From a virus, in the IMG/VR virus record IMGVR_UViG_3300044551_000008, positions 1-38,483 of that record: a stretch of 38,483 nucleotides of DNA. One strand, 5' to 3'. The position numbers and the translations under genes are program-made. The notes under the pieces were generated by a model that was given only the letters and a program-made list of their open reading frames with translations, was not told the DNA's origin and searched no databases. Positions 2,691 to 22,682 of the stretch are shown here, in pieces (within the stretch, counting starts at the first letter, position 1; each line of letters opens with the position of its first letter).

Positions 2691-2904
2691 CAACAAATTT
2701 TACAACGTTATCAAATGGGCTGTTTTAACAGCCTTGCCAGCACTTAGTGTATTTATTGGAGTAATTGGCAAAGCCTACGGTTGGGGTGGAACTGATTTAG
2801 CTATCATTACTTTGAATGCATTCACGGTATTCTTGGGAACATTGGCTGGAGTAAGTGCGGTTAAATATAACAATCAGCCAAATGATACGGAGGAAAACAA
2901 ATGA
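2680..2904 (+). CDS. Holin (two TM segments)
   Basis: An internal ATG at 2680 follows AAGGAAGG. The 74-aa product has two hydrophobic helices and a charged C-terminus, and its 3' end overlaps the endolysin start by 4 nt (2901-2904). The longer 2638 start has no RBS. Confidence 0.7.
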
Positions 2905-4190
2905 AAAAAGTAATTAAAAAAGCTGCCATTGGAATGGTAGCTTTCTTTGTTGTCGCAGCAAGTGGACCAGTATTTGCGGCAGTCGGTGACCAAGGGGTGG
3001 ACTGGTCAAAATATAATGGAGATTATGGGAACTTTGGTTATGCTCATGATAAATTTGCTTTTAGCCAAATCGGAGGGACTTACGGTGGAACCTTTGTAGA
3101 CCAAGCCACCTATGAAACGCAAGTAGCTTCAGCAATTGCTCAAGGTAAACGAGCGCACACTTATATTTGGTACCAAGTCGGAGGCTCTCAAGAAGTAGCA
3201 AAAGCAGCACTTGATCGTTACTTACCAAGAATTAAAACACCAAAGAATTCTATTGTAGCTTTGGACTATGAAGGTGGAGCAAGTGGAAATAAACAGGCCA
3301 ATACTGATGCGATTCTTTACGGAATGCGTCGAGTAAAAGCGGCTGGATATACTCCAATGTATTATTCAGATAAGCCTTACACTTTGGCTCATGTCAATTA
3401 TAAGCAAATCATCAAAGAGTTTCCTAACTCATTATGGATTGCGGCTTATCCAAATTATGAAGTAACACCAGTTCCAAACTATAGCTTCTTCCCAAGTATG
3501 GACGGAATTTCAGTATTCCAGTTCACATCAACTTATGTTGCTGGCGGACTTGATGGAAATGTTGATTTAACAGGAATCACAGATAATGGATACGGAAAAC
3601 AGCAAGGCCAAGAAGTTAAACCCGATACTGCTACACCGGCCATTGAAAATGGTAAAGAAGCCAATGAAGTTAAAGGAAACGATGTAGAAGTTGGAATGAC
3701 GGTTAAAGTAAACTTTGGCGCTAAGAATTATGCCACAGGAGAAACAATTCCTCAATGGGTAAAAGGTCAACCACATAAAATCATCCAGAAGAATGGAGAT
3801 ACTGTCTTGCTTGATGGTATTATGAGCTGGTTATCCGTTCATGATGTGGAAACTATTGATGCTTCTACAAGCCAGCCAACGACACCCGCAAAAAGTTATA
3901 TTGTAAAACAAGGTGATACACTTAGTGGGATTGCTTCAAATTGGGGCACAAACTGGCAAGAATTAGCACGTCAGAACAATTTATCCAATCCTAATATGAT
4001 TTACTCTGGTCAGGTTATCCGCTTCACAGGCGGTCAATCTGGGGCTACAGCACGAACTTACACCGTACGCTCAGGCGATAATCTTTCATCAATTGCCAGT
4101 CGCTTGGGAACAACAGTTCAAAACTTAGTTTCAATGAATGGTATTTCAAACCCTAATTTGATTTATGCTGGTCAAACATTAAACTATTAA
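2901..4190 (+). CDS. lys: Endolysin: Sec-type signal peptide + GH25-like muramidase + SH3-like linker + 2x LysM
   Basis: The N-terminus [26 protein letters not shown]|AV looks like a signal peptide. [17 protein letters not shown] fits GH25. Two LysM repeats are present ([13 protein letters not shown].., [13 protein letters not shown]..). Confidence 0.85.
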
Positions 4191-4196
4191 AATTAA

Positions 4197-4221
4197 ACCC
4201 CGCTTCGGCGGGTATTTTTTT
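4197..4221 (+). terminator. Intrinsic terminator after the endolysin
   Basis: Stem CCCCGC/GCGGGG with a TTCG loop (4199-4212), followed by a T7 run. Confidence 0.8.
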
Positions 4222-4231
4222 CTAATATTTA

Positions 4232-4240
4232 TGCTATAAT
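4232..4240 (+). promoter_or_regulatory. Extended -10 promoter TGCTATAAT driving a leaderless operon
   Basis: TGnTATAAT is present. The -10 ends 9 nt before the ATG at 4250, and there is no SD between them. Confidence 0.55.
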
Positions 4241-4249
4241 AACTTTAGT

Positions 4250-4771
4250 ATGAAAGAGAAAACCACTTTATATCATGTTAATACACATGCTAAGGTTAAT
4301 AATTTAATTGATAATAATGAGTTGAATATCAGTGTACATGAATCGGATAATCAATATACAGGAACTGGTATGTATTTTTGGGATAATAAGGGGAATGCGA
4401 ATTATTGGTTAGGTGAGAAGCTGAAACACGAAAGTAAGAAGAACCTATGTCTTTTAGTTATATCTGCTGAATATTCTACAGATGAATTATTAGATTTGAT
4501 GGATTATGCTCAGGAAAAAGAGTATCAAAATATTTTATCAAGGTTGTCAAAAATAGGTGTGTTCAGTGGTAAAACTCTTGGAGAAAAAGTAGATTATTTA
4601 TGTGACTATTTAGGATGTAAGCTTGTTAGATCCTTGACATACTATCCAGGTACCCCGCAGACGAATTTATTAGAACAGAGTAGAGTAACAAACAAGTCTA
4701 AGGTTATCTATTGTATAAAGCCTGGTCATTATGATATAATCAAGTCAAAGCATAAGGAGGTGTTTCAGTGA
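4250..4771 (+). CDS. Hypothetical 173-aa protein; possible ADP-ribosyltransferase-fold (PARP/DarT/Tpt1/DUF3990-like) candidate toxin
   Basis: Long ORF in the moron slot. The N-terminal TLYHVNT, then ISVHES and GTGMYFWD, resemble the beta1/beta2 motifs of H-Y-E / H-H-h ART enzymes. This is motif reading only. Confidence 0.6.
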   Translation: MKEKTTLYHVNTHAKVNNLIDNNELNISVHESDNQYTGTGMYFWDNKGNANYWLGEKLKHESKKNLCLLVISAEYSTDELLDLMDYAQEKEYQNILSRLSKIGVFSGKTLGEKVDYLCDYLGCKLVRSLTYYPGTPQTNLLEQSRVTNKSKVIYCIKPGHYDIIKSKHKEVFQ

Positions 4772-5034
4772 TGGACATGTTAACTAAATTGAAAATGCTA
4801 TCTGCTCAGTTAGACAATCCAAGCTTTGCTAAGGAATTCTCTGAAGGTTTTGAAGAGTTCCTAGGCGATAAATATGTGAGTGAATTTGATAAGACTATAT
4901 CTTTTGAAGTCGTGTGTAATTTTGATGACACATTTTCAAATGATGAAGATGTAAAAAACAAGGCAGGCCTTTTTGAACCTAAGCCACTTGTATTTTCCAA
5001 CATGTTTGATATCGAGATTGTTGAAGCTGCTTGA
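4771..5034 (+). CDS. Small acidic protein (87 aa from ATG 4771); candidate antitoxin/partner
   Basis: AAGGAGG lies 10 nt upstream of ATG 4771. The start overlaps the upstream stop (GTGATG), which suggests translational coupling. The product is rich in D/E with a hydrophobic C-terminal tail LVFSNMFDIEIV. Confidence 0.6.
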   Translation: MDMLTKLKMLSAQLDNPSFAKEFSEGFEEFLGDKYVSEFDKTISFEVVCNFDDTFSNDEDVKNKAGLFEPKPLVFSNMFDIEIVEAA

Positions 5035-5057
5035 TATAAGAATTATAGAGAGAAAAA

Positions 5058-5471
5058 ATGGAAGCTCCAGTTATTGAATTTAAAAGTTATGAAATAAAAA
5101 AAATAAATTATGTTCTTCTTACAGAAGAGGAAGGTGAAAAAGCCAAAATGAAGTTTTTGGTATCGGGCGCTTTATCTGATGATGCAGAAGCTGGCATAGT
5201 AACATTAGACATAAGTCTTCCGCAAAAAGAACAGAAGAGAAAAATCGACGTTATTCTTTCTGGATACTTTAGATTCAGAGAAGATTTGACATCAAACGAA
5301 GAAAAACATCAATATTTAAGCGTTAATGGGACTGCTATCTTGTTGCCTTACCTTAGAGCGACAGTATCAATGATATCAGTGTTAGATAAAAATGAAGCAA
5401 TAGTTTTTCCAACATTGAATATTGCAGAACTCATGAAAAAGTCTAAAGAAAATGGTGAAGATGAAAATTAG
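5058..5471 (+). CDS. SecB-like chaperone (137 aa)
   Basis: VNGTAILLPYLRATVSMISVL..FPTLNIAELM aligns by eye with the SecB hallmark [35 protein letters not shown]. The tail is acidic, as in SecB. Confidence 0.6.
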   Translation: MEAPVIEFKSYEIKKINYVLLTEEEGEKAKMKFLVSGALSDDAEAGIVTLDISLPQKEQKRKIDVILSGYFRFREDLTSNEEKHQYLSVNGTAILLPYLRATVSMISVLDKNEAIVFPTLNIAELMKKSKENGEDEN

Positions 5472-5477
5472 ATAATT

Positions 5478-5500
5478 CGCCCTCCGGGGCGTTTTTCTTT
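5478..5500 (+). terminator. Intrinsic terminator of the three-gene operon
   Basis: Stem CGCCC/GGGCG with a TCCG loop (5478-5491), then TTTTTCTTT. Confidence 0.8.
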
Positions 5501-5517
5501 GTACTCGTTAGGAAGTT

Positions 5518-5569
5518 TGCTATAATTAAACTTCTAACACTGATCCCCCTTAATTGGGGGTCTTTTTTT
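5518..5569 (+). ncRNA. Mini-cassette 1: promoter + ~37-nt hairpin RNA + terminator (candidate sRNA)
   Basis: TGCTATAAT at 5518-5526. Hairpin at 5542-5562 (CCCCC/GGGGG, loop TTAATT). T7 run at 5563-5569. No ORF. Confidence 0.4.
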
Positions 5570-5603
5570 GTTAACAAATGTTACTTCGTCATTTTATTGA
5601 TGT

Positions 5604-5705
5604 TGTTATAATAATGGAATCATGAATGCTATTCCAATTACAAATACAAATAGCTAAGTGTTTATGAAGAGATAAAGCGCCCTTTTCCAAAGCGAGGGCG
5701 TTTTT
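5604..5705 (+). ncRNA. Mini-cassette 2 (candidate ~85-nt sRNA)
   Basis: TGTTATAAT at 5604-5612. Internal hairpin TGGAAT/ATTCCA at 5615-5636. Terminator CGCCC..GGGCG at 5678-5700 plus T5. Confidence 0.4.
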
Positions 5706-5727
5706 CTTTACAACGGAAACAGTAAAT

Positions 5728-5806
5728 TGTATAATAATTTTATCCTTTTACATAAGGTTATAAATAACTCCGAGAACATCGTTTTGACTAAGTGACGGTG
5801 TTTTTT
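5728..5806 (+). ncRNA. Mini-cassette 3 (candidate ~65-nt sRNA)
   Basis: TTGTATAAT with TATAAT at 5730-5735. Hairpin at 5741-5760. Terminator stem at 5775-5802 plus T6. Confidence 0.4.
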
Positions 5807-5831
5807 ATTTGAAAACGAATACAAAAAGTAG

Positions 5832-5888
5832 TATAATGAATTCATCTTACCTATATAAGATAACGTCTGCCCTTAAACAGGGCTTTTT
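5832..5888 (+). ncRNA. Mini-cassette 4 (candidate ~45-nt sRNA)
   Basis: TATAAT at 5832-5837. Perfect hairpin ATCTTA/TAAGAT at 5844-5861. GCCC/GGGC hairpin at 5869-5883 plus T5. Confidence 0.35.
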
Positions 5889-5933
5889 GTTCTAGTTAAG
5901 GAAGTAGATATATACTATATTTACCCAAAAATA

Positions 5934-5991
5934 TATAATTTTTCATAAAGTTTACTCCGAGCGTCCCTCTCCTAACTGGGGCGATTTTTTT
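5934..5991 (+). ncRNA. Mini-cassette 5 (candidate sRNA; weakest promoter)
   Basis: TATAAT at 5934-5939 without a TG. Terminator at 5962-5983 plus T7. It shares ACTCCGAG before its terminator with cassette 3. Confidence 0.3.
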
Positions 5992-5992
5992 A

Positions 5993-6070
5993 TGCTATAA
6001 TATAGTCGGGATGTTTGTGAGATTTCATCCTATTCCTAGAGTCAAGCCATTCTTCGGAGTGGCTTTTTTT
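5993..6070 (+). ncRNA. Mini-cassette 6 (candidate ~63-nt sRNA)
   Basis: TGCTATAAT at 5993-6001. Hairpin GGATG/CATCC at 6009-6030. Terminator at 6045-6064 with a C(UUCG)G tetraloop plus T7. Confidence 0.4.
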
Positions 6071-6085
6071 ATTTATTAAAAAAGT

Positions 6086-6204
6086 TGTATAATAGTTTTA
6101 GTGGATGAGAAAAACATTCATTTACAAACACTTGATAATCTGCAGTTCCGTCCACATATATCTAATATAATAATCAAGATATGTGCTGCAGATTGTCATA
6201 TTTT
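6086..6204 (+). ncRNA. Mini-cassette 7: promoter + leader containing a long inverted repeat, reading into the tRNA-like element
   Basis: TGTATAAT at 6086-6093. A 12-bp inverted repeat lies at 6134-6145/6186-6197. There is no strong terminator before 6205. Confidence 0.35.
6134..6197. repeat. Inverted repeat GATAATCTGCAG ... CTGCAGATTGTC with inner CACATAT/ATATGTG arms
   Basis: 12 bp pair (one G-T) around a 40-nt interior that has a second 7-bp stem. The loop contains TATAAT (6166-6171). Confidence 0.75.
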
Positions 6205-6265
6205 GGTTCTTTAGCTCAGTTGGTAGCTAACCGTTCGGTCGCTGGTTCGAGTCCAGCAAGAACCA
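6205..6265 (+). ncRNA. tRNA-like element (61 nt) with perfect acceptor stem and T-arm, partial D-arm, and no anticodon arm
   Basis: GGTTCTT/AAGAACC forms a 7-bp acceptor stem. TAGCTCAGTTGGTAG is a D-arm consensus. GCTGG-TTCGAGT-CCAGC is a T-arm. Only about 11 nt (ACC-GUUC-GGU mini-hairpin) stand where 22-23 nt would be expected. Confidence 0.7.
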
Positions 6266-6278
6266 TAAATAAAATGTA

Positions 6279-6312
6279 TATAATAGTAGAAACTCCTTAA
6301 AAGGAGTTTTTT
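6279..6312 (+). terminator. Mini-cassette 8 / terminator hairpin abutting attP
   Basis: TATAAT at 6279-6284, then stem AACTCCTT/AAGGAGTT at 6291-6308 plus a T run. The resulting transcript would be little more than the hairpin. Confidence 0.5.
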
Positions 6313-6351
6313 AGTTACCTTAATTGAAATAAACGAAATAAAAACTCGCAA
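6296..6351. other. attP: attP of the TP901-1 serine integrase (core TCAATTAAGGTAA on the - strand at 6315-6327)
   Basis: AAAGGAGTTTTTTAGTTACCTTAATTGAAATAAACGAAATAAAAACTCGC matches my recollection of the minimal TP901-1 attP. It lies immediately 3' of int. Confidence 0.8.
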
Positions 6352-7809
6352 TTAAGCGAGTTGGAATTTAAATATGATATCTACATTATCAGCAGTAACA
6401 TCAACCTTTGATACAAGGTTGTTGACTATTTTCTTTTTATTATCATATGATAGTTCATTAATCGGAATTGAGCCCAACTGAGTTTTAACTAACTCAAAAA
6501 CATCAGTAGAGTCATTAAATTTATTTTCGCTAATCTTAGCTTTAAGCAGCTTTTTCTCAGCCTGAAGGGAATCAGTACGATCTTTCAACTCATCCATAGT
6601 GATAAAATCATTTAGGTACAAATCAGAGTTCTTTTGTATTTTTTTATCGATCTGTGAAATTTGCTTTTTAAATGACGAAGTATTAATAGTAGGTTGGTTG
6701 TTGCCATTGATAATTTTCAATAAGGAGTCATTATTTTCTTGAAATCCAATCAGGTTGTCAATAACAGTATTTTCTAAATTACTTAAATCATAAGTTCCTG
6801 AATCACACTTTTTATTGTCATTATATACTGTAATTCCTTTTGTTTTTCGAGGAAATCTATTTGCACAGTGATATTTCATAGTGCGGCTTCCATCTTTTCT
6901 TTTGTGGCCAAGAACAATTTTTAAAGGTGCTCCACAGTAACCGCACCTTGCCATCCCTGATAACATATATTTGGCTTGGAAAGGTCTAGGATTGTTGTTT
7001 CTTTCATAAGTCTGCTGTTGTCTTTCTTCTAGCTCTTTTTGAACTTTTAAATAAGTCTCATAAGGGATAATTGGTTTGTGCATACCTTCAAATAGGCTGT
7101 CCTTAAATTTGATATAACCACAGTAAACTGGATTATCAAGTGTTTGTCTTAGGGTACGATAAGACCATGGTATATCTTTACCGATGTGTCCAGCTTCATT
7201 GAGTTTATCTCTTAATTTTGTAAGTGATATTCCTGATAAATAATCAGTGAATATTTGTTCAACTATTGTAGCTTGTAAAGGAACAATTTCTAATATACCT
7301 GTCTTTCTGTTGTGGTAATACCCAAAAGCTGTCTTAGTCCACATCATAGACTTACCAGATTTCGCTCGCCCTAGTTTACCCATAGTCATGCGTTCTTTTA
7401 TATTCTCTCTTTCAAACTCATTAATTGCAGAAAGAATAGTGAGAAACAAGCTACCCATAGCAGAAGAAGTATCAATACTTTCATTAAGCGAGATAAAGTC
7501 TATTTTATTTTTTTTGAACACATCCTTAACAAGATAAAGAGTATCTCTTACACTACGGGAAAGGCGGTCTAGCTTATATACAAGAACTGTATCAAAAGCT
7601 TTATTCTCGATATCGTTGGTTAATCTTTGCATTGCTGGGCGTTCAAGTTTGGCCCCTGAAAAACCAGCATCAGTATAAGTATCAGATACTTGCCACCCCA
7701 TTGCTTCAGCATATTTTGTTAAACGGTCAATTTGCTCATCAATTGAGAACCCTTCCTCTGCTTGGTTAGTAGTGGATACTCGTGTATAGATTGCTACTTT
7801 CTTAGTCAT
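6352..7809 (-). CDS. int: Large serine recombinase (integrase), TP901-1 type, 485 aa
   Basis: MTKKVAIYTRVSTTNQAEEGFSIDEQ... contains the resolvase catalytic Ser motif. The length and sequence match the recalled TP901-1 Int. A C-terminal zinc ribbon (CGYCGAP..) and a coiled coil are present. Confidence 0.93.
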   Translation of the reverse strand: MTKKVAIYTRVSTTNQAEEGFSIDEQIDRLTKYAEAMGWQVSDTYTDAGFSGAKLERPAMQRLTNDIENKAFDTVLVYKLDRLSRSVRDTLYLVKDVFKKNKIDFISLNESIDTSSAMGSLFLTILSAINEFERENIKERMTMGKLGRAKSGKSMMWTKTAFGYYHNRKTGILEIVPLQATIVEQIFTDYLSGISLTKLRDKLNEAGHIGKDIPWSYRTLRQTLDNPVYCGYIKFKDSLFEGMHKPIIPYETYLKVQKELEERQQQTYERNNNPRPFQAKYMLSGMARCGYCGAPLKIVLGHKRKDGSRTMKYHCANRFPRKTKGITVYNDNKKCDSGTYDLSNLENTVIDNLIGFQENNDSLLKIINGNNQPTINTSSFKKQISQIDKKIQKNSDLYLNDFITMDELKDRTDSLQAEKKLLKAKISENKFNDSTDVFELVKTQLGSIPINELSYDNKKKIVNNLVSKVDVTADNVDIIFKFQLA

Positions 7810-22607: not shown

Positions 22608-22682
22608 GTGGCTGCATGGTCAAGGGGTTAAGATACTGCACTTTTAGTGCAGAGGCGTGAGTTCGAATCTCACTCAGTCACA
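22608..22682 (+). tRNA. tRNA-Lys(UUU)-like gene with non-canonical junctions
   Basis: 7-bp acceptor stem GTGGCTG/CAGTCAC (one G-T). Anticodon arm CTGCA-CTTTTAG-TGCAG. T-arm GTGAG-TTCGAAT-CTCAC. GG is present in the D-loop. There is one extra nt at the T-stem/acceptor junction and the D-stem is weak. Confidence 0.55.

Follow-up and report, generated by a model that had tools for sequence, protein, structure and literature searches.

A probable CmdTAC-family toxin–antitoxin–chaperone cassette in the genome of a P335-group Lactococcus phage

A three-gene operon lying near the phage attachment site (attP) of the IMG/VR virus record IMGVR_UViG_3300044551_000008 is very probably a divergent, Gram-positive member of the CmdTAC (PD-T4-9) family, placed in the slot between the lysis genes and attP of a P335-group phage and acting through an abortive-infection mechanism like that of CmdTAC. 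The window, by which we mean the whole stretch analysed, comprises all 38,483 nucleotides of that record. An earlier note on this DNA, made from the sequence alone, had described the operon (4232-5500) as resembling a toxin–antitoxin–chaperone (TAC) system. Its three genes are as follows.

4250-4771, + strand: gene 1, open reading frame (ORF) of 173 aa
4771-5034, + strand: gene 2, ORF of 87 aa if begun at the ATG; position 4768 offers an in-frame GTG
5058-5471, + strand: gene 3, ORF of 137 aa

The kind of system is already known and its mechanism understood (PMC9519451, PMC11618068). PD-T4-9 of Escherichia coli ECOR22 was renamed CmdTAC, for ‘chaperone-mediated defence’ (PMC9519451). CmdT is an ADP-ribosyltransferase (ART) with an H-Y-[E/D/Q] triad, inactivated by the Y41A mutation; CmdA pairs two helices at its N-terminus with a long, disordered chaperone-addiction domain (ChAD) at the C-terminus; and CmdC is a tetrameric SecB-like chaperone (PMC11618068). 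When T4 infects the cell, its major capsid protein displaces CmdC, ClpP degrades CmdA, and the released CmdT modifies adenine N6 at GA in single-stranded RNA, blocking translation (PMC11618068). Both the toxicity of CmdTA and defence by CmdTAC require ClpX and ClpP (bioRxiv 10.1101/2024.02.24.581848). In E. coli, CmdT by itself did not prove toxic.

The three proteins and their relatives

The assignment rests first on two profile matches. The gene 1 product matches PADLOC profile PD-T4-9_A (E = 1.8e-06, residues 31-114) and the gene 3 product has a full-length match to PD-T4-9_C (E = 2e-19); the two neighbouring genes point the same way and are separated by a single ORF. These are matches to the profiles, as distinct from pipeline calls made with the coverage cut-offs of PADLOC or DefenseFinder. 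The wider family behaves in the same way. A profile search with the gene 1 family retrieved 581 representative clusters at E ≤ 0.001, nearly all of them 160-200 aa long and matched from end to end, and each of 59 sampled members matches PD-T4-9_A.

Operon structure was surveyed using one genome per species, which gave 64 loci containing a relative of gene 1. Most are from Firmicutes (Streptococcus mitis/oralis, Ligilactobacillus, Enterococcus, Lachnospiraceae and Clostridia), with some from Bacteroidota and Spirochaetes; the authors of the CmdTAC work had themselves reported homologues in Gram-positive bacteria (PMC11618068). A gene 3 homologue is found downstream on the same strand at 55 loci, and the full toxin–antitoxin–chaperone (T-A-C) layout, whose middle ORF is in most cases acidic and 80-130 aa in length, at 53. 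Together with the PD-T4-9_A and PD-T4-9_C matches, this bears out the TAC architecture first proposed. At two of the related loci, L016:3507-5634 (an uncultured Lactobacillus metagenome-assembled genome, MAG) and L068, a larger basic ORF, of 388 aa and pI 9.8 in the former, separates the toxin and chaperone genes; it may be an insertion, such as a transposase, which disrupts the cassette.

A reference locus from E. coli N2250 was recovered with a 60-nt cmdT probe built from the sequence of the published Y41A primers. It occupies NZ_CP189474.1 3125353-3126566 and, at 1,214 bp, is of the same length as the ECOR22 interval. It lies in a P2-like prophage hotspot with replication endonuclease and DinI-like genes to one side and a portal gene to the other. 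Since its proteins match PD-T4-9_A, B and C with E-values of 4.4e-97, 3e-38 and 7e-61, we treat it as a genuine CmdTAC, not identical to the ECOR22 system. The probe matched three of 5,426 complete E. coli genomes, and in RefSeq the CmdT and CmdA of N2250 are each labelled ‘hypothetical protein’ and its CmdC ‘protein-export chaperone SecB’.

In an alignment of 59 gene 1 family sequences, H9, G38, Y42, W44 and W53 are invariant, and conservation exceeds 90% at G40, F43, D45, D82, G111, Y132 and Y154. When this family is aligned with N2250 CmdT using hhalign (91.5%, E = 8.8e-07, 86 columns), GTGM-Y42-FWD pairs with TQGY-Y-FWTD and DELL-D82-LMD with DELL-D-LVG. The Y41A mutagenesis primers CV109/110 encode ...V-T-Q-G-Y-[Y→A]-F-W-T-D-D-P-Y-W (PMC11618068 supplement) and, because they change that codon, the catalytic Y41 of CmdT must be the second tyrosine of Q-G-Y-Y-F-W. 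It is on this residue that Y42 of gene 1 falls in the profile alignment. The E. coli protein also has a histidine at a similar N-terminal position (VVH7), outside the aligned stretch. A Y-x10-Y spacing is typical of diphtheria-toxin-type ARTs, and the distance from Y42 to W53 is the same. H9, Y42 (with W53, as Y-x10-W) and D82 are candidate active-site residues. Two of the motifs remarked on in the earlier note, TLYH and GTGMYFWD, are real, whereas the third, ISVHES, is no ART motif: in the close family S28 alone is conserved and the histidine is not.

Neither Pfam nor NCBIfam contains a significant match to gene 1, and the family profile finds no match among PDB sequences. The AlphaFold2 model (pLDDT 91, pTM 0.86) was compared with the PDB using Foldseek and the top ~23 matches all possess the ART fold (RES toxins, NatT, PARP-2, diphtheria toxin, ParT, MbcT, Tpt1 and DarT), at modest TM-scores of 0.4-0.5, a degree of likeness comparable with the root-mean-square deviation of 6.9 Å that has been reported for CmdT and exotoxin A (PMC11618068). 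In BFVD, the best viral matches to the model are phage ART-type domains. The model therefore assigns gene 1 an ART fold, as had been suspected. The suggestion that it might represent a new type of toxin has to be abandoned, as sequence comparison places gene 1 among the ADP-ribosyltransferase toxins of the CmdT family of CmdTAC (PD-T4-9), described in 2022 and explained mechanistically in 2024.

Gene 3 can be linked to SecB by several routes. A profile of 36 family sequences matches solved SecB proteins over their full length (Haemophilus influenzae 1fx3/1ozb, E = 4.5e-09; E. coli 1qyn, E = 6e-08), and this alignment reproduces the correspondence ILLPYLR...FPTLN originally spotted by eye. The family aligns with E. 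coli CmdC in hhalign (97.8%, E = 1.3e-12) and the protein itself matches phrog_21664 (2e-23). The Pfam SecB family suggested in the earlier note does match, but under its cut-off (PF02556, 15.5 bits vs 26; similarly TIGR00809, 15.2 bits vs 102.8). The protein has an acidic C-terminal tail, and its AlphaFold2 model, which is of low confidence, has SecB topology with four strands and a long helix. The 17 best Foldseek matches of this model are all from the SecB family, headed by the Mycobacterium tuberculosis TAC chaperone Rv1957 in complex with a ChAD peptide (5mtw), a result which we count as supporting evidence only. On the profile comparisons, gene 3 belongs to the SecB family and encodes a putative CmdC-like chaperone. 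Among the SecB-fold matches of the model are two ‘proteins of unknown function’ from structural genomics, 2o2a and 2hng (from Streptococcus agalactiae and Streptococcus pneumoniae), which may be the chaperones of similar streptococcal TAC systems.

The middle protein is a different matter. Gene 2 encodes an acidic protein (pI 4.1) with 12 aromatic residues in 87 and a C-terminus reading ...IVEAA. It matches neither PD-T4-9_B nor any other PADLOC profile, and nothing significant in Pfam or NCBIfam; among 5.8 billion proteins it has three close relatives, and a jackhmmer search with it over the related loci gave one marginal streptococcal match (E = 0.005). Comparison of the lactococcal with the streptococcal copies shows conservation over the first ~32 residues, against a hypervariable C-terminal half rich in aromatic residues. 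Gene 2 evidently evolves very fast, to judge by these comparisons. CmdA is likewise too variable to be useful and was omitted from the rules for calling CmdTAC (PMC9519451, PMC11618068).

What persists in the middle proteins is their ending. We compared 52 of them (50 from related loci, plus those of the window and of E. coli N2250) and 41 end in -AA, including the window protein and E. coli CmdA (...LDLAA); a further five end in -VA, bringing the two together to 46. The terminal Ala-Ala of the CmdA ChAD is an SsrA-like ClpXP degron (Mets et al., bioRxiv 10.1101/2024.02.24.581848). Gene 2 would therefore share the design of CmdA: its N-terminus is conserved, its tail hypervariable, and the Ala-Ala at its end a predicted degron of ClpXP type. 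The earlier note was right that the protein is acidic and that its gene overlaps gene 1, although what it called a hydrophobic tail is better described as this Ala-Ala degron. Its expectation of an antitoxin with a C-terminal addiction segment is consistent with the hypervariable, aromatic-rich tail and its terminal Ala-Ala.

Insertion, expression signals and phage context

Comparison with other phages shows the operon to be part of a discrete insertion, supplied with expression signals of its own. The relevant features are these.

4194-5489, + strand: whole inserted cassette (moron), bounded by comparison with the ‘empty site’ phage LT985574
4199-4222 (hairpin 4199-4212), + strand: intrinsic terminator that follows the endolysin gene and lies inside the cassette, CCCGCTTCGGCGGG and then a T-run
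4232-4240, + strand: predicted extended -10 promoter TGCTATAAT, read directly from the sequence
4754-4760, + strand: strong Shine-Dalgarno sequence AAGGAGG for the antitoxin, inside the 3' end of the toxin gene
5478-5500 (hairpin 5478-5491), + strand: intrinsic terminator of the operon, CGCCCTCCGGGGCG followed by TTTTTCTTTG
2901-4190: GH25/LysM endolysin gene, upstream neighbour of the cassette
6352-7809, - strand: large serine integrase gene, 485 aa, downstream of the cassette

The limits of the cassette are set by LT985574, which joins the same two flanks (up to 4193 and from 5490) across 28 bp where the window has 1,296 bp. In Lactococcus phage 38502 the slot is filled instead by two unrelated hypothetical genes. 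The cassette has a GC content of 30-34%, against 39-42% for the endolysin gene. This discrete insertion, in a slot that varies among related phages, agrees with the original description of the operon as a moron. The original placing of the slot between the endolysin terminator and attP is also correct as to position, though the operon does not directly adjoin attP, being separated from it by ~800 bp of non-coding promoter- and terminator-like units. The site itself is recognised from TCAATTAAGGTAACTAAAAAACTCC, which we take to be the attP core of TP901-1 type and which is matched exactly at 6303-6327 on the - strand, directly downstream of the 485-aa serine integrase gene. The genome record of TP901-1 happens to start near the point that matches 6303-6327.

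The backbone shares 93-95% identity with proPhi1, Tuc2009 and TP901-1 across 40-45% of a 24.7-kb stretch used as query, and is on this basis that of a mosaic temperate Lactococcus phage of the P335 group (TP901-1/Tuc2009-like). The cassette was absent from 50,697 deposited phage genomes when these were searched by megablast with the cassette and by tblastn with gene 1, the flanks alone being matched. It does occur elsewhere. An identical toxin protein is encoded on nine contigs from different sequencing runs, and in other lactococcal prophages the three ORFs are kept as a unit with toxins of 55-74% identity. Copies with toxins of 55-67% identity are located after lysis genes or beside a tyrosine integrase gene in other Lactococcus prophage backbones, and one of these comes from a Lactococcus plantarum MAG whose baseplate is Mu-like. 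Without exception, the diverged lactococcal copies adjoin prophage lysis or integrase genes. In Logan contigs L003-L005 a 99.8% identical cassette (L003:908-2224) follows a GNAT acetyltransferase gene and a 57-aa ORF, with no endolysin gene there, and L004 retains an 85-bp remnant similar to the 3' end of the endolysin gene. These comparisons suggest that recombination near position 4190 of the window, at the left edge of the cassette, carries it from one context to another.

The signals at the two ends of the operon are as the earlier note described them: 9 nt separate the end of an extended -10 element from the first ATG, no Shine-Dalgarno sequence lies in the interval, and the operon has its own terminator, with a hairpin at 5478-5491. 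The 9-nt spacer is AACTTTAGT and contains nothing resembling a Shine-Dalgarno sequence. A generic promoter scan did not call the element at 4232-4240, because no -35 is present. In four diverged lactococcal cassettes whose other upstream DNA differs, TTT-TG-n-TATAAT, the 9-nt gap to the ATG and A4247 are all invariant. That adenine lies 7 nt past the -10 and 3 nt before the ATG of gene 1. It is plausible that transcription starts at about 4247, which would give the toxin mRNA a leader of ~3 nt and make it functionally leaderless, a reading supported by the invariance of motif, spacing and adenine in the lactococcal clade. We asked whether the arrangement is a family-wide trait and found that it is not: the promoter feature is lacking in the rest of the family, and 41 of 61 other toxin genes have a Shine-Dalgarno-like element upstream. 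The leaderless start, itself plausible, would be peculiar to the lactococcal clade.

The antitoxin gene is provided for differently. Its AAGGAGG site is kept in all four lactococcal cassettes compared, as is the overlap design in which the toxin stop and antitoxin start share TGATG (4769-4773). The terminator at 4199-4222 is predicted to insulate the cassette from late transcription, and the diverged cassettes are each closed by a terminator of their own, different in each. Terminators are in general abundant here, with 10 terminator-like sites in 4000-6400 against 0.7 expected.

The region between the operon and attP has features of its own. On the + strand of 5500-6200 there are about five mini-units, each consisting of a TGnTATAAT-like or near-consensus promoter followed 30-70 nt on by an intrinsic terminator, as listed here.

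approximately 5519-5527, 5707-5735, 5809-5837 and 5993-6001, + strand: mini-unit promoters
5542-5562, ~5678-5694, 5869-5883 and 6044-6065, + strand: mini-unit terminators

Parts of this region appear alike, and it is conserved in related P335 phages. A search of 5500-6200 with Rfam gave nothing significant; the mini-units may be small RNA genes. Beyond them is a 61-nt tRNA-like element (6205-6265, + strand) which scores 37.8 bits with the Rfam tRNA model (gathering score 29, E = 8e-06) and is not called by ARAGORN. Its acceptor, D and T arms are apparently intact and its anticodon arm is shortened. It lies between a promoter-like TTGTATAAT (~6087) and a terminator at ~6291-6312 that overlaps the attP core, and is ~91% conserved in phage LT985574. 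Elsewhere in the window, ARAGORN calls a tRNA-Lys gene (anticodon TTT) at 22608-22682 on the + strand.

Proposed mechanism and its alternatives

Gene 1 is homologous to CmdT and gene 3 to CmdC and SecB, the T-A-C operon is conserved, the antitoxin ends in Ala-Ala and the operon has predicted promoter and terminator signals of its own. By analogy with CmdTAC of E. coli one would then expect protection of the antitoxin by the chaperone, ClpXP-dependent release of the toxin, ADP-ribosylation of RNA, abortive infection and triggering by a structural protein from an incoming phage. The predicted promoter would be active constitutively in the lysogen. The toxin would probably be translated poorly from its (nearly) leaderless start and the antitoxin strongly, through the AAGGAGG site and coupling, so that the antitoxin would stay more abundant than the toxin. 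The SecB-like chaperone, as a tetramer, would hold the disordered C-terminal tail of the antitoxin, hiding the Ala-Ala degron from ClpXP. An abundant structural protein of a superinfecting phage, which in E. coli is the major capsid protein, would compete for the chaperone; the freed antitoxin would be degraded and the toxin released. It would then ADP-ribosylate single-stranded RNA (mRNA), stopping translation and aborting the infection.

Several observations weigh against so close a parallel. The PD-T4-9_A match of gene 1 amounts to 26 bits and spans 82 of 187 model positions, and a BLASTP comparison with E. coli CmdT finds 27% identity over 79 aa (E = 0.003). The profile alignment with CmdT covers residues ~30-120 of gene 1, leaving the C-terminal ~50 residues unaligned, and the best structural matches are to RES-type NAD+-consuming toxins, with TM-scores of 0.42-0.48. 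Gene 2 has no alignable similarity to E. coli CmdA. Gene 3 and E. coli CmdC are not significantly similar in pairwise BLASTP, so that profiles are required to connect them, and the model of gene 3 is poor (pLDDT 57) because the alignment behind it held 9 close sequences only. Given the distance of the clade, the unaligned C-terminal third and the presence of RES toxins among the nearest structures, the RNA substrate is the main uncertainty.

The same facts give some room to a toxin of other chemistry or target within the same TAC architecture, be it depletion of NAD+, as in the RES toxins MbcT and NatT, or ADP-ribosylation of DNA, tRNA/rRNA or protein. The four best Foldseek matches in the PDB are RES toxins (8gug, 8qnl, 8qnq and 9r35), ahead of PARP and diphtheria toxin; the N-terminal two-thirds alone aligns to CmdT, and the C-terminal ~50 residues left unaligned could shape substrate binding; and the window clade and the tested E. 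coli protein match different PADLOC sub-profiles. However, the conserved H, Y and D fit the H-Y-[E/D/Q] of CmdT and diphtheria-toxin ARTs rather than R-E-S, profile homology points to CmdT and, within PADLOC and Pfam, to nothing else, and the TM-scores are equally low for RES toxins and for other ARTs. We regard such a change of chemistry as unlikely.

Doubtful to a similar degree is an extension of the CmdTAC reading in which the lactococcal clade is a functionally distinct variant, having a leaderless toxin mRNA, another substrate, RNA or otherwise, recognised by way of the unaligned C-terminal third, and a chaperone which senses a structural protein of dairy phages (936/Skunavirus, c2 or P335) but not the capsid of the prophage that encodes it. 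Translation of the toxin without a leader could even contribute to the switch, were infection, for instance, to favour leaderless mRNAs.

The cassette might alternatively serve mainly to stabilise the prophage, as an addiction module responsible for post-segregational killing or for control of its own induction, with no role in phage exclusion. It is, after all, a module of toxin–antitoxin type on a mobile element close to attP and the integrase gene, and the capsid and tail proteins made in bulk on induction of the prophage could conceivably interact with the chaperone. Yet PD-T4-9 is enriched in phage genomes according to one survey (bioRxiv 10.1101/2024.10.26.620412), both characterised CmdTAC systems effect anti-phage abortive infection and are found in prophage accessory hotspots, and the slot carries other accessory cargo in related phages, as would be expected of exchangeable defence morons. 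A role confined to addiction thus seems very unlikely. The alternative raised in the earlier note, an anti-defence operon whose ART inactivates a component of host immunity, is least probable of all and finds no support: phage ARTs that act on host targets do exist (T4 Alt, ModA and ModB) and the BFVD matches of gene 1 are to phage ART-like domains, but an enzyme with a degron-tagged partner and a SecB-like chaperone is arranged as one would expect for a toxin held in check, and not for an anti-defence factor that is injected or made early, the predicted promoter is of constitutive type with terminators to insulate it from lytic transcription, and the homology is to a defence system.

What appears to be new, then, is a divergent prophage-borne CmdTAC clade of lactococci in which a predicted leaderless toxin start is conserved. 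Mentions of TAC systems or PD-T4-9 in Lactococcus prophages that we found in the literature were confined to generic surveys, and no description of the lactococcal clade was found in the literature consulted; another survey records PD-T4-9 in MAGs from lactic fermentation. CmdTAC has been characterised in E. coli only so that, if the assignment is true, defence by ADP-ribosylation of mRNA would extend to Gram-positive dairy bacteria, in which phage resistance is of economic weight and abortive-infection systems have a long history. As a defined 1.3-kb unit with its own predicted promoter and terminator, the cassette is directly testable in Lactococcus lactis. The terminal Ala-Ala, shared by antitoxins that cannot otherwise be aligned, provides a simple sequence marker for unannotated CmdA genes.

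Comparison with known systems

The closest comparison is with the CmdTAC of E. coli ECOR22 and N2250. The T-A-C order is the same and the total lengths differ very little, at 1,222 bp in the window and 1,214 bp in E. coli. In both, the ART toxin measures ~170-190 aa and carries a histidine at the N-terminal end, the catalytic tyrosine of G-x-Y-F-W and an acidic residue in LLDL; both have a small acidic antitoxin ending in Ala-Ala and a SecB-like third protein of ~130 aa, and both reside in a prophage accessory hotspot. In contrast, the toxins share ~27% identity over half their length, the chaperones are connected by profiles only, the antitoxins are unrelated and different PADLOC sub-profiles are matched. 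The host of the window phage is Gram-positive, the carrier is a siphovirus prophage and the toxin gene is predicted to be (nearly) leaderless. The CmdTAC of E. coli O112ab:H26 (bioRxiv 10.1101/2024.02.24.581848), compared by description, is likewise prophage-encoded with a ChAD ending in Ala-Ala; it has ClpXP-dependent activation and an ART toxin that modifies mRNA. It differs in being enterobacterial and in acting against Tevenvirinae.

The RES-Xre, MbcTA/NatRT and DarTG systems share with gene 1 the ART-superfamily toxin fold in a toxin–antitoxin or defence context and are among its top Foldseek matches. Unlike the present cassette they have two genes and no chaperone, and other catalytic residues (an R-E-S triad); their toxins, unlike CmdT, degrade NAD+ or, in the case of DarT, act on thymidine in single-stranded DNA. 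In Pfam and PADLOC none of them has sequence-profile similarity to gene 1. Membership of RES-Xre/MbcTA was considered and rejected: the invariant residues are H9, G38, Y42, W44 and W53, not Arg-Glu-Ser, there is no match to RES in Pfam, and the partners are a small acidic protein and a SecB-like protein, leaving a likeness in fold only.

The housekeeping SecB of Proteobacteria (1qyn, 1fx3) has the same fold as gene 3 and full-length profile similarity to it (E of about 1e-08 to 1e-09), but gene 3 is encoded in a prophage toxin operon of a Firmicute. Firmicutes are not known to use SecB for export. We also rejected a housekeeping identity for gene 3, which scores under the PF02556 and TIGR00809 cut-offs and is found in a toxin operon in a prophage.

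Of the canonical TAC systems (HigBAC, MqsRAC and HicAB-SecB) none fits as a family assignment, as searches of Pfam, NCBIfam and PADLOC link neither gene 1 nor gene 2 to HigB/HigA, MqsR/MqsA or HicA/HicB and the toxin is an ART. HigBA1-SecB(TA) of M. tuberculosis (Rv1955-Rv1957; 5mtw) accordingly differs in having the ribonuclease HigB as toxin and a DNA-binding antitoxin of HigA type, while gene 2 has no recognisable DNA-binding domain. The general plan is nonetheless alike, combining a toxin, an antitoxin with a C-terminal chaperone-addiction tail and a SecB-like chaperone; the mycobacterial antitoxin bears an aliphatic C-terminal ClpXP degron (Val-Ala), and gene 3 finds its best structural match in 5mtw.

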